DNA from: Octopus sinensis
Lineage: Eukaryota
Assembly: GCF_006345805.1 (NCBI RefSeq)
Contig: NC_043007.1
Location: forward strand, 15,128,001-15,192,000
DNA: 64,000 nucleotides
Direction: 5' to 3'
The stretch's first letter is position 1. Every line of letters starts with the position of its first letter. Shown one piece after another: positions 2,003 through 54,128 of this stretch. A model generated the notes under the pieces. The model was not told the origin of the DNA. It did no database searches and saw nothing but the letters and a program-made list of their open reading frames with translations. A program made the position numbers and the translations under genes.

Positions 2003-3689
2003 TATAATGAATTATTTTTATGAAAAGCCAACGTTATCAAGTAGTGCTTGTATGCCTAAATGTAATGAGCAAATTACGAATGAATTTTCTTGTTTTCAGA
2101 TACAATTACGTGTTACATTATTCATCTGCAATTTGTGTCCATGTTTACCCGTTTGTATCTCATAAATAGTAACGATATTGCTAATATAATTTTCTTATAT
2201 CTCAAATATTACTTATGAAATTTGAAGTGACACTTCATTTATCGTCTTTGGAAATGCATTTGAGTTCTGAATTATGTTTAAATAGATCTGGCTAGACTCA
2301 GCAAAGAGTTTATAAACAAATGGTTATTATTCTCTTAAATGGTTACAAGAAATAAAATCATAGTATCACATTTCTAAAAGGCCAAACGAGACAAAAAATA
2401 AAAAAAAGGCAAAAAAAAAAAAAAACAAAACAAAACAAAACAAAACAAAAAAGTTTCTGCCATGCGATAGACATAACACTATTCATTCTGAAGAAGTTTT
2501 GGTTTTACAATAAATTTTTGAAAAAAATTATAAAAATCGTATTTGCTTTAAATAGCTCTAATATTTTAACACAAATGTTGTTGGTAATTGATAATTAGGA
2601 TGAAAAATTCTCTGCAAGACGTGTGTTTGCAGACAGTTGTCTTCTGACATTATGAAAATTAATTGAGATTTGTTTAGTTCTAAAATGTCTGGCGTACACT
2701 GAAGAAATTCAATAGACACATCAATAAAACATTGTTTCAAGGCATTTGAGGTGTTTTGAAAGTCTAAGAATCTGCCTCATATATATTCTCTCGGTGACTC
2801 TCTGTACCATGTCGAACTACCAAAGATCAAACAAATACGAGACACCGCTCGGTGTAATATAGAAATACGATATCAGGATGAAGATACATAAATGAACCCA
2901 AACGCAGCAAGAAAAGAAAAACAATAACAACAATGACAATAATATCAACAGCAACATTAACAACAACAACAACAGCAACAACAACAACAACAATCACTTG
3001 TAAAGTTCGCACAACGAGGGGCATTAGTCGATTAAACTGACTCTTGTTCTTAACTGGTACGTTTAGTGACCCCGGAAGTAAGAAAGGCAAAGCCGACCCG
3101 GGCGGATTTACAGCAATAATAATTATCCTTTTTGTTATAGGCCCAAAGCGGGAAATTTGGGGGTGGGGGACTGTCGATTGCATCTACCCCCAGTACTCAA
3201 CTGGTACTTATTTTATCGACCTCGAAAGGATGACAAACAACTCGACCTAGGCAGAATTTGGACTCAGAACTTTAAGATGGACGAAATATCTATTTCTTTA
3301 CTACCCACAAGGGGCTAAACACAGAGGACAAACAAGCTCAATCAAACGGATTAAGTCGATTACATCGACCCAGTACGTAACTGGTACTTATTTAATCGAC
3401 CCCGAAAGGATGAAAGGCTAAGTCGACCTCGGCGGAATTTGAATTCAGAACGTAACGGCAGACGAAATACCGCTAAGCATTTTACTCGGCGTGCTAACGA
3501 TTGCGCCAGCTCACCATCAATACAATAATAATAGGAGAGTATTGTAGTTCGCTTGAAGCATTGTGTATTGTTTGTAAAGAATAAAAAGTTTTGAATGGTA
3601 CAACAATGCACTGTAATACAAACAATGAGCTATATACCTGTTGTAATTTAGTCATCCATAGTCAGATATGATATTTCGGAATAATATTC

Positions 3690-3769
3690 TTATATTTCGG
3701 AATGGTCATTTTGCCAGTTTAGCCAATAAATATTGGCTAAACTGGCAAAATGACCATTCCGAAATATAA
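3690..3769. repeat. 80-bp palindrome
   Basis: TTATATTTCGGAATGGTCATTTTGCCAGTTTAGCCAATA-AA-TATTGGCTAAACTGGCAAAATGACCATTCCGAAATATAA. Confidence 0.9.
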
Positions 3770-4440
3770 CAATATCTGTTTCAACACACGACTTCACATA
3801 AAAAATCTTGCACAACAAATATTTAAACGGAATAATATTCCTTCTTCAGATATTCATAGATGGAGTCGGTGCTATAATCGGTTTTCTAACAGCTCTTCAT
3901 TTTTATTTTTAGGAAGCGTCTCAGCAGTGGTCACACGATGCTCCTTCCGGAATTCCTCATGAGAAGTGTGTGAGGTCGGCCATGTCTCAGTCTCGTGTGT
4001 GCTGATGATATCGGAAAGCTTTCTTCCAACGCTCTAACACATCTTACAGCTTGCTAGGCCAAGGATTTCTCCTATTATTATTATTTCAGTAATCGTGCGG
4101 AATTCATGATAAATCTTGTTTCTCGACAGAAGAGAAAGTAAAACAAGAAGATACCAGAAATATATCTAAGCCAATAAGCTGCAAGTTGGCAGAATCGCTA
4201 GCAAGACGGGCAAAATGCTTAATGGAATTTCACTTGTCTTTACGTTCTGAGTTCAAATTCCACTGAGGTCGATTTTGCCTCTCATCCTTTCGACAGCGAT
4301 TAAATAAGTACCAGTTGAATACTGGAGTCGATCTAATCGTTTTATCTTCTCTCTGAAATTGCTAGTCACGTGCTAAAATTTGAAACCAATATATGACAGC
4401 CAATTGAAACACTTGTAGTGTTCCTTTAAGAAACCTAGTA

Positions 4441-50655: not shown

Positions 50656-50981
50656 AGATGTTCATCGCACCACTGCCAATTTGCTCACTGATACAGTTTT
50701 ACTGTAACGAACCCAGCAACTGAGGTGCAGTAAGACCAGTACCACCGGATCGTATTGAAGAGATCAAATTTACATTTTGACAAATTGAAAATGAATCTGT
50801 TGCTGGTTTAACACTACTACAACCACCTTTGACTACCTGTAAGTGGAGTTAATTGTGGCAAGCACTCAGAGCGAGTTTCTGATCCCAAGATAACTCTCTC
50901 CTATTTCAGAAGTTTAGAAAATATTGAAAACAAAACGCCATCCATCCATGAGTAATGGCATTCTCCACATCAAAAGAGCTT

Positions 50982-51413
50982 GGGGATCTTTTCGGTTTGA
51001 ACGGCAGTTTTTAACGTAAGTAACTAAAAAATTTTAAACTTCGTATACTGATAGAATGTGTTTATAAAACATCTTTTTCTCCTGGCTTTATTGAGAAAAT
51101 TCTATAGTTTGTAAGATATTTGTTGTTTTTTTCTTCAATTTCTGCAATTTCAACAAATCAGTGACGTCTATTGAGTTAAAAAGCATTCTGTCCCTCGTTT
51201 AAGAAACAGATTAGGTTTATTTACATTTGTGAAGAAAAAAAGATAACCTTCCCCCACCCCTAACCCTAACCTAACTAACCCTATCTAACCCTAACTAACC
51301 CTAACCCTAAAAGAGATTGAAATGCAATAGATCGATTCTAGGGTTATAATTATGGGTGACAATTTCATATGACACCGCTAGAAAAAACTGCCATTCAAAC
51401 CGAAAAGATTCCC
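50982..51413. mobile_element. MITE with ~30-bp TIRs carrying an internal (CCCTAA)n tract
   Basis: GGGGATCTTTTCGGTTTGAACGGCAGTTTTT / AAAAAACTGCCATTCAAACCGAAAAGATTCCC; CCCTAA repeats at about 51258-51309. Confidence 0.75.
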
Positions 51414-54128
51414 AAAATGGTAATAAATTAAGTAATTTTATTGTTGATGGTATTGTTTCTTGTATTAGCTCTATGAGATTAATGAGTGTAAATGTGTTGA
51501 ACGCCGCTGAGTTCTCTCCAAGCAGTGAGCATGTCGGCTTCGAGAAACTCATCACTCTCTCCAAATGACATCTACGAAATACGCATTAATTATGTATTGC
51601 TTCCGTTCTTAATGATTGCAGTAATATGTACGTTCCATTGTAACTAGTAAACTAAATGAACTGGGCCACATTAGATTGCATTATCTCAACAGTTCAGCAC
51701 TGTTGATAAAAAAGGTGGAGTTTATCTCACTAATAAATTTATAATGATCATAATGCTTCGTGAAAAAAACATCTCAATCTTTACTCGTTAATAAAGCGAT
51801 ATATAAATTTTCCCATAAATCATCTTAATATAGAAGCCCTTATCTGGTTACTGGACCTGATAAAAAAAGACTGCCAAATCTTTCTCAGATTAAACTCTGT
51901 TGCTTTGGAAATTAATCTATTAACTCTCCACAGGGGGCGATAATTACATTTATGGCGTAGTTATTGCACTGTTACATTAACTGCTTTAGGTTGCCCATTC
52001 GTGTCGTATTCATTAATAATTGCAATTCGTCCTTGAAGAACAAGCGTGCTAACCGTCACATCCTACAGCAGTATCATAATTGCGTTGTAATTACAGTCTG
52101 GAATTGAAACTACGGCACCGTTATGGTTTTCAGGAAGTTTATCTATGCTTTTCCATCAATTCTGCTCTCCCCACGAACTTTCTAAGTAATGTAGTTTTGC
52201 TTCAAAGTAAGATATAGCTAATTACAACCAATTTAATATTGTTCTGCAAGAAATTATCAATAGAGATAATAGAGTTTTACTATTAAGGAAATTGTAATTA
52301 GTGAAAATAATTTTGTTATTGAACAGAAAAATATAATTGAGGATGATAAAATATTTCTTATTAAAGGATATTGTATTTAAAGGCAATATAATTTTCTTAT
52401 GTAGGAAATGATCATATTTAAACATTTTAAAAAAGGCAACACGTATTATAAATGTATCGATTTTTGGAAATTTTCAGAGAACTGACAAGTTTTCAACTAA
52501 AATTAAAATAATGACTAATATGTTGAGCATAATTAGGTTGTTAATTAAGAACGATCTAGTTCAGAAACACTTTTATAAGGAGAAAAACTACCTATTCTCT
52601 GTCTCTCTGCTTCTCTGTCTCTCTCTCTGTTTCTCTGTCTGTCTCTCTCTCCCTTCTCTCTTTGTCTCTAACTCTGTCTCTTTATCTAAGTTTATCACTC
52701 GAATAATACCATCTACTTGAAGCATTACACTTCACTGCCAATGTATTTATTTATCAAAATATTCTAGGAATTTGTAAGAATTCTACTTTATACACTTAAT
52801 TAAATTATCAATTAATCTCCTTTTCCGGCATGATTCGATATTTTACGAACATTTCAGGTTATTAAAGGGACGGCAAGTAATGGTGACGTTTATATTTTCG
52901 TTGATGACAATTATTAGAAATGTTGAACTTGAATTCAAAATGACTAACGACTAACATCACTCTTGAAACTTAAGAGCATCAACGAATTTGAATCAAACTG
53001 TTTTGATCTATGCATGTAACTCTGTTGAGTGCCAATAACTTTCTTGAGTGCCTTCTTTCGTTTTCCCACTCACTTGTGTATAGATTAGATGAGTTACAGT
53101 CTAAAATAACCGTCTCAGAGATAAATGTATCCATTGTACAGGTAAAGACAAGGATGAACAGGAGTTTATCAATATCTCCAGCTTTGCGCTGTTCGTTGAT
53201 TATATTTGCTCTAACCTGGCACTCTGTGGGTTAAGATGACGATGGTTTCATTTGAGCAAATCAAGGGAACAGCATACTGGTAAAATAAACGTGCTTTAAT
53301 GTAACTCTGAGGGAGATTCAGCGTGACACACAATGTGACAGACCCGGCCCTTTGTATTTTCGGTGCAACTTATTTTTGCCGGCTGAGTGATCTGGAGCAG
53401 CGTGAAGATAAAATATCTTGCTTAAGGACACAGGGTGCCACTGGGAATCGAACTCATGACCTTATGAGCGTGAGCTGATTCCCCTAACCGCTAAGTCATG
53501 CACCTTTTAAATATGGTATGCCGGTATGGTCGCAATCAGAGGACTCAGAACTCTTCTGACCATTTCATCATGTTGAACTTTTAATCCCTGCACATTTTTT
53601 TCTTTCTCCGTTTCTTTTTTCTCCTAAAAACCTTTCTGTTGAAGAGCGTCGACTCGAAACATCAAAGACTTTTGCTCTCTTCCCGAGCGTGAAACTAATG
53701 CAACCGCTTGTTGTTCCTTCACCAGTCTTCATCTTTTGTTTTCTGTAAATCTGAACTACACACATACATATGTATTTATATGTTTGTGTGCATGTATGTA
53801 TATATATATATATATATATATATATATATATATATATATATATATATACACACACACACACACATATATATATATATGCATACATATACGTATACATGGA
53901 CACACATACACGCAAACACACACTCACATCTATATTTATAAGAGAAACAAACATTCGCGTAATCTCACACACCAAGCACAGTCGTTGGCCTTCACATATC
54001 ATAGCACCACTCCTATTACAGCTACACATCGTGCAGATACTTATAACACAATGACCAACAACAATAAGCATATAAGTACTTTACATCCAGAAAATAGACA
54101 GTCACGGAGAACTCATTGAAAAGTCTAC

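Follow-up and report, generated by a model that had tools for sequence, protein, structure and literature searches.

Hammerhead-bearing fragments in a 64-kb Octopus sinensis locus as probable truncated 3' ends of coding Penelope-like elements

Minimal hammerhead ribozymes occur in the pseudo-long terminal repeats (pLTRs) of metazoan Penelope-like elements (PLEs), and truncated PLEs have been proposed as the source of most metazoan minimal hammerheads (Cervera and de la Pena, 2014, PMC4209133). Here we describe such sequences in a stretch of 64,000 nucleotides of the Octopus sinensis genome (assembly GCF_006345805.1, contig NC_043007.1, positions 15,128,001 to 15,192,000), called "the window" and numbered from its first letter. 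The window carries 14 loci with a hammerhead-like motif. Twelve of them are, with a probability that we put at about 0.88, 5'-truncated 3' ends of eight coding PLE families, designated A to H. Comparisons with published work refer to the available parts of the papers cited.

The hammerheads of metazoan PLE pLTRs share with those studied here the minimal core, the unpaired base after A9, the palindromic stem III and a U3-A8 variant. In both cases there are thousands of mostly single motifs, as well as opposite-strand pairs 100-700 bp apart. However, the family-wide G3-C8, A6U, A9C and U3.G8 cores found here are not mentioned in the available part of PMC4209133, and family A shows an A10.1.G11.1 mismatch in addition. 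The endonuclease-bearing (EN+) PLEs of the Hydra, Neptune and Nematis clades (Craig et al., 2021, PMC8557442) also have a C-terminal GIY-YIG domain, cysteine motifs in the linker, (TA)n targets and an inverted 5'-truncated copy with a tail at one end. In the octopus, tails are about 40-75 nt long vs. 30-40, many insertions have shrunk to a palindrome of 130-400 bp, and the one-tail rule has been counted. Poseidon of Anolis carolinensis (Frangieh et al., 2024, PMC11167929) has in common with the octopus elements two 3' ends split by a tail, an AT-rich target and, on the model proposed below, an uncleaved RNA template. Yet Poseidon belongs to a different clade, and the C3G/G8C change, an engineered rescue there, is the natural state of family E here. 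Finally, non-LTR retrozymes (PMC7229834; Li, Clavereau and Pollet, 2026 preprint) share the type-I hammerhead, short non-coding copies and a PLE ancestry. Retrozymes consist of tandem units arranged head to tail, with canonical ribozymes and with circular RNAs, whereas the octopus elements are scattered, have minimal ribozymes, are arranged head to head and pass directly into coding elements. Hammerheads from truncated PLEs, motif pairs on opposite strands, tails and the targeting of (TA)n have already been described (Cervera, 2014; Craig, 2021; Frangieh, 2024). The additions made here are modest: a family with a natural G3-C8 core and a counted one-tail rule.

An earlier reading of the window sequence alone (hereafter the original prediction) had proposed a dispersed, high-copy population of microsatellite-embedded hammerheads, and all 16 of its coordinates carry the sequences described. 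Copy number was measured by pattern searches of the 2.72-Gb genome assembly, which give lower bounds and count arms rather than insertions. Family A (window motif at 7082) has 4,015 matches, family B (20395, 6912, 40546, 53636) 15,175, family C (14072) 9,332, family D (23285, 46632) 4,123, family E (8215) 4,764 plus 1,394 for a younger subfamily, family F (18328) 2,910, family G (7742) 292 with at most one mismatch, and family H (40253) 690 with at most two; every reversed control gave 0. The eight families thus range from 292 to 15,175 matches, but the loci at 13647 and 34677 belong to no high-copy family.

Family anatomy, cores and open reading frames (ORFs) were studied in the first 25-30 loci sampled per pattern. 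In all eight families, the 3' end is fixed, the 5' extent varies freely and long copies run into a frame for reverse transcriptase (RT) and/or the GIY-YIG endonuclease, as expected from the predicted link with GIY-YIG Penelope elements. Hence, the short motif-bearing pieces are best read as truncation products. Two families are assigned to the Hydra clade (A, D) and six to the Neptune/Nematis type (B, C, E, F, G, H), the latter from a CX2-5CxxC linker and a CCHH motif read by eye, the clade, Neptune or Nematis, being least certain for E and F. The family A frame, 723 aa from stop to stop, lies between 890-bp inverted ends that are 98.9% identical. It carries RWK, DKT and a CxCX5C linker, the defining marks of the Hydra clade (PMC8557442), and no CCHH motif; the protein gave no match in Pfam or among sequences of solved structures. 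Family D has RT, GIY-YIG and CxCX5C and is 43% identical to A, its N-terminal motifs not being seen. RT, GIY-YIG, the linker and the CCHH motif are all present in families B, C, G and H. RVT_1 and GIY-YIG of Pfam are matched by pieces of B and E (RVT_1 at 6.7e-08 for family B). Family F is represented by the endonuclease part, 46% identical to that of family E, and family C by one long copy with RT and endonuclease 2.7 kb upstream. Family E includes near-intact elements with frames of 715-1,042 aa that carry RT and GIY-YIG. Its ribozyme stands about 1.1 kb downstream of the endonuclease in 23 of the 30 loci from a protein search, after a (CATA)n-rich untranslated region (UTR). Sense ORF pieces within 1.5 kb upstream were found in 4/30 loci of A, 3/30 of B, 0/30 of C, 6/30 of D, 0/30 of E, 6/30 of F and 15/25 of both G and H. 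Family E had been considered as non-autonomous, none of its first 30 loci having an upstream frame; the endonuclease-linked loci and the frames of up to 1,042 aa overturned this idea. The 3' UTRs of families C and E consist of 1.1-2.7 kb of (CA)n/(CATA)n-like sequence, and these two families may seed microsatellites in this way. As for the two endonuclease relics that were predicted to carry hammerheads, at 7255 and 38350, they do so, but the motifs counted separately at 7735 and 40250 are the relics' own 3' ends. The window loci are listed in Table 1.

Table 1. Hammerhead-bearing and related loci in the window.
Locus	Positions	Strand	Remarks
Family F 3' end, head-to-head palindrome	3684..3840	.	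palindrome 3684-3775, tail on right arm; truncated downstream of ribozyme, without hammerhead
Family B (Neptune-type) truncated 3' end	6804..6963	-	core CUGUGGA at 6912, G12 lost
Family A (Hydra clade) head-to-head pair	6991..7220	.	arms 6991-7069 and 7070-7148; tail 7149-7220; cores CCGAUGA at 7082 (+) and 7057 (-); CTAG word at junction; (TA)n on both sides
Family G (Neptune-type) 5'-truncated copy	7255..7906	+	core UUGAAGA (U3.G8) at 7742, stem III ACCGGU; GIY-YIG end 7255-7587, 99% identical to longer family frame
Family E truncated 3' end with tail	8032..8264	-	core at 8215 GUGAACA, with G3-C8 swap; stem I of 7 bp, stem II of 5 bp, stem III AAUAUU; inverted arm 8236-8264, short and with an internal deletion, core letters at 8249 (+)
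Single-copy hammerhead-like motif	13638..13692	+	core (13647) canonical; stem II weak; stem III ACC/GGU; stem I of 6 bp requires 2-nt insertion
Family C (Neptune-type) truncated 3' end	13996..14212	+	core CCGACGA at 14072, stem III ACGU
Family F truncated 3' end	18182..18427	-	core CUGAUGA at 18328
Family B truncated 3' end	20317..20524	+	core CUGUCGA (A6U) at 20395, stem III ACGU
Family D (Hydra clade) head-to-head pair	23105..23378	.	left-arm tail; cores CCGAAGA at 23285 (+) and 23260 (-)
Single-copy 84+84-bp palindrome, inward-facing hammerhead-like motifs	34661..34828	.	core canonical in both motifs (34677 +, 34812 -); GUC site; stem III long
Family H (Neptune-type) 2-kb truncated, frameshifted copy	38350..40361	+	RT thumb and GIY-YIG 38375-39370; core UUGAUAA (U3-A8) at 40253, stem III ACAUGU
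Family B decayed truncated 3' end	40440..40600	-	core at 40546
Family D decayed head-to-head pair	46478..46675	.	left-arm tail; partial core at 46632 (-)
Family B decayed truncated 3' end	53600..53750	+	core at 53636

The microsatellite-embedded appearance of the motifs arises because the element chooses (TA)n targets. A (TA)4 run lies within 150 nt in 30/30 loci of family A, 27/30 of B, 26/30 of C and 28/30 of D, vs. 13% of random points; for a distance of 200 nt, the counts are 23/30 loci of E and 26/30 of F, vs. 16%. In G and H, internal TA runs make this count uninformative, and (TA)n insertion is seen in individual loci. The predicted enrichment at (TA)n edges is thus borne out for A to F, but does not extend to 13647 and 34677. 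Between 6804 and 8264, four families (B, A, G and E) stand end to end with (TA)n tracts alone between them, which is repeated insertion into the same target.

Two features were absent from the original prediction, namely fixed core variants, to which we return below, and a head-to-head inverted structure with a one-sided tail. In families A, D, E and F, there are two different 3' ends, with a tail of about 55-75 nt between them. An inverted partner is found within 1.5 kb upstream in 17/30 loci of A, 2/30 of B, 3/30 of C, 17/30 of D, 14/30 of E, 10/30 of F, 11/25 of G and 4/25 of H, and family A alone forms 646 tight palindromes genome-wide. The tail stands on exactly one arm in 124 of 129 head-to-head pairs (A 58/58, D 16/16, E 30/33, F 13/13, G 4/5, H 3/4). 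At the 58 family A junctions, drawn from pairs mostly selected for short spacers, the arms overlap by 1-6 nt in 42 cases, are blunt in 9 and enclose an insertion in 7; the hot spot is a CTAG word directly upstream of stem I. Subfamily letters are shared by the two arms in 34 of 38 family A pairs, vs. 35% expected. Palindromes are also found downstream of the ribozyme (3684-3775), so that pair formation is independent of it. Cleavage was considered as the source of the insertion 5' ends and rejected: only one of 50 unselected copies starts at the cleavage site. Family E palindromes at four places in the genome have the same junction and similar flanks, and are possibly a re-amplified unit or segmental copies.

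These data suggest the following course of events. A (TA)n tract that has been cut would prime reverse transcription, which likely stops early, giving 5'-truncated 3' ends. Both target strands would be cut and would each prime one cDNA, with a distal start site for one and a proximal site for the other, on RNA of common origin. Both cDNAs, truncated, would then be joined head to head via 0-6 nt of microhomology. The template would be mostly uncleaved RNA, and the ends of the insertion would therefore not be set by the ribozyme, whose role is likely a low-rate trimming of tandem precursor RNA. Each family's minimal hammerhead is predicted to be slow, cleaving only as a dimer or with the help of a protein. 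In the anole PLE, there are two RT start sites, both strands are cut and extended, uncleaved RNA is used, and cleavage is assisted by the protein, with partial rescue by C3G/G8C (PMC11167929). Alternatively, a single cDNA could fold back at a short palindrome and be resolved by the endonuclease at the proximal site. This is a serious candidate that nonetheless falls short of even odds. It would account for the subfamily and private letters common to both arms and for a junction hot spot, CTAG, that is self-complementary; the tailed arm reaches further 5' in 20 pairs vs. 11, and Craig et al. (2021, PMC8557442) ascribe the tail to endonuclease resolution. However, the asymmetry is reversed in those 11 pairs, a short spacer was a criterion in choosing part of the pairs, and the two start sites and extension of both strands observed in vitro for the anole element (PMC11167929) favor two priming events.

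The motifs themselves have a minimal type-I architecture, with the core, stems I and II and a short self-complementary stem III, as originally proposed; stem I is weak in C and H. Family A has the canonical core in 26/30 copies, the core being partly fixed by the search pattern. Family B has U6 (A6U) in 30/30. Family C has CCGACGA (U4C) in 16/30 and the canonical core in 12/30, and family D has CCGAAGA (U4C) in 17 of the 26 copies with a core. C9 (A9C) is found in 21/28 copies of F, U3 in 25/25 of G, with G8 fixed by the pattern, and U3-A8 in 25/25 of H. In family E, G3-C8 is present in 88 of the 100 matches listed first for the older subfamily (the others being 5 G-G, 3 G-U, 2 U-C, 1 A-G and 1 C-C), in 97 of the 100 listed matches of the younger one, in 72 of 82 distinct copies and at 22 of 23 endonuclease-linked loci. 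The other core positions are U4 in 81/82, G5 in 81/82, A6 in 82/82 and A9 in 82/82, and the stems are nearly invariant. A canonical C3-G8 core with the older family E stem-loop II has 0 matches genome-wide, and positions 3 and 8 show no alternative letter at 3% or more in the contigs of four public runs from three organisms. A single family E copy has A3-U8, another Watson-Crick state, which may be due to chance.

Positions 3 and 8 still pair in all eight families, as C-G five times, U.G, U-A and G-C. Because all three families changed at 3 or 8 still pair, this points, modestly, to selection on the catalytic fold, and the G3-C8 hammerhead of family E is predicted to be an active variant. U3-A8 is a known natural variant, and the available part of PMC3088659 lists it together with A6C and U4C, and not G3-C8. 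In the literature covered, which excludes Lunse et al. (2017) and supplements, either of which may list G3-C8, this pair or C3G/G8C is found only as an engineered variant with partial activity (PMC3884650, PMC8495972, PMC11167929); ribozymes are not mentioned in the available part of PMC13282606. The hammerheads could also be catalytically dead or neutral remnants retained as a protein-binding structure, G3-C8 having drifted in a master copy. Changes at conserved core positions dominate in most families, ribozyme mutants leave insertion in vitro unaffected and anole RNA-seq reads never end at the site (PMC11167929), and eight of nine Xenopus dimers tested did not cleave. We nevertheless consider this explanation rather unlikely, since the other core positions of family E are nearly invariant across subfamilies that differ in loop II, and the double changes in E and H both restore a Watson-Crick pair.

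It is very unlikely that the short copies are the separate non-autonomous parasites of the original prediction, true retrozymes or elements resembling short interspersed nuclear elements (SINEs) that would amplify themselves via ribozyme-cut or circular RNA with PLE proteins in trans. In favor of this reading, most sampled copies of B, C and E lack coding sequence, many family E copies begin 20-60 nt before the core, a PLE origin of animal retrozymes has been argued (bioRxiv 10.64898/2026.07.22.740005) and one Rfam-type hammerhead elsewhere in the genome lies within a 431-bp direct duplication. Against it, 5' ends vary continuously and do not coincide with the cleavage site, each of the eight families has long copies that run into a frame, none of the window motifs is inside a tandem unit, and the clustering of 5' ends in family E falls directly downstream of the (CATA)n-rich 3' UTR of a coding element. 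Head-to-tail tandem hammerhead units and a non-coding full-length element characterize retrozymes; in the window the pairs are head-to-head, and the long copies of all eight families are coding. In a genome scan with Rfam Hammerhead_1, in which 74 of 265,813 candidates were scored, seven matches above cut-off were found outside the window. Five of them form one family, and the 431-bp duplication, which holds two, is a possible retrozyme-like or partial tandem.

We tentatively propose, as an idea that we hold to be possible though somewhat doubtful as a whole, that family E is the first natural G3-C8 family, a young coding element of more than 6,000 copies common to three related organisms, and that, together with the U3-A8, U3.G8, A6U, A9C and U4C cores, it reveals a fold that is selected but tuned to be slow, sparing uncut RNA for two-ended priming and thereby producing the one-tail rule.

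Several observations weigh against this proposal or against the truncated-PLE reading on which it builds. The argument from 3-8 pairing concerns three changed families, and the copies within a family, derived from few masters, are not independent. Relaxed selection on catalysis could explain just as well why A6U dominates in B, A9C in F and U4C in C and D. Minimum-energy folds of dimers were mixed and are not counted as support: a hammerhead dimer is predicted for A, G and H, and not for the E, B, C, D and F windows. The link of family C to its frame comes from one clear locus among few long ones. The arm that extends further 5' varies, being the tailed one in 20, the untailed one in 11 and neither in 27 of the 58 family A pairs. 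Inverted pairs are rare in B (2/30) and C (3/30), hence the two-primer step does not apply throughout. Most copies in the window have decayed and do not pass a strict descriptor: 6912 lacks G12, and 40546, 53636, 14072, 18328, 23285 and 46632 have stem or core changes relative to copies of their own families. Finally, the loci at 13647 and 34677 do not fit an origin from PLE ends.

The strict canonical descriptor passes only the 34677/34812 motif in the window (shuffled mean 0.05), the remaining motifs failing because of the unpaired base after A9 or of core variants. Likewise, an Rfam scan of the window gave no hammerhead family among the best 150 of 217 matches, only microsatellite-driven miRNA matches. 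With a relaxed minimal-hammerhead descriptor, tuned after the families had been seen, the motifs exceed the shuffled expectation, with 15 matches in 604 kb (window, flanks and random stretches) vs. 0-2 in 10 shuffles, and 4 vs. 0 in 10 shuffles for the window only. The predicted density of about one motif per 5 kb holds in the window (one per 4-5 kb) but is local, the same families giving 33 matches in the other 540 kb; it is high partly because the families were defined from the window itself.

The motifs at 13647 and 34677 have no high-copy family genome-wide and are not in (TA)n. Over the core, 26 of 31 bases are the same in both; they lie 21 kb apart, have a longer stem III than the PLE motifs and share no flanks, which led us to reject a tandem gene or segmental duplication as their source. 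They have no match in metagenome contigs. Two further look-alikes, on contigs C28 and C1, are limited to the core region, without stems I and III; the one on C1, which has a pyrimidine tract and AG in front of it, may be a coding exon. The palindrome at 34661..34828 is intronic, with calmodulin-like exons of the minus strand on either side, and its motif would likely be buried by the palindrome hairpin within a transcript. Two exons of this EF-hand gene have splice signals (41904-42059 and 25827-26078, minus strand); its first and last exons were not located, nor was a second copy in 384 kb. The simplest reading of the two motifs is that they are decayed relics of an old family, and they may also represent a domesticated intronic ribozyme.

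Other repeats in the window include a SINE-like family of very high abundance whose members contain a 181-bp tandem unit (8985-9400, 42312-42844 and numerous further places), a second family (4440-4860, 30914-31330 and others), a tandem array of 22 copies of a 16-bp unit (33320-33677), and old imperfect palindromes of 65-75% identity outside the named families (23611-23810, 24058-24352, 40792-40934).

PLE hammerheads may or may not cut in vivo, since mutants leave insertion in vitro unaffected. A natural compensatory swap of the 3-8 pair, which is formed in the active fold, is evolutionary evidence for selection on that fold, and family E offers near-intact elements as test material. G3-C8 cores are missed by standard descriptors, and hammerhead counts are thus underestimated. 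Finally, the one-tail rule (124/129) is a sharp genomic constraint on the inverted insertion of PLEs that separates two testable models.

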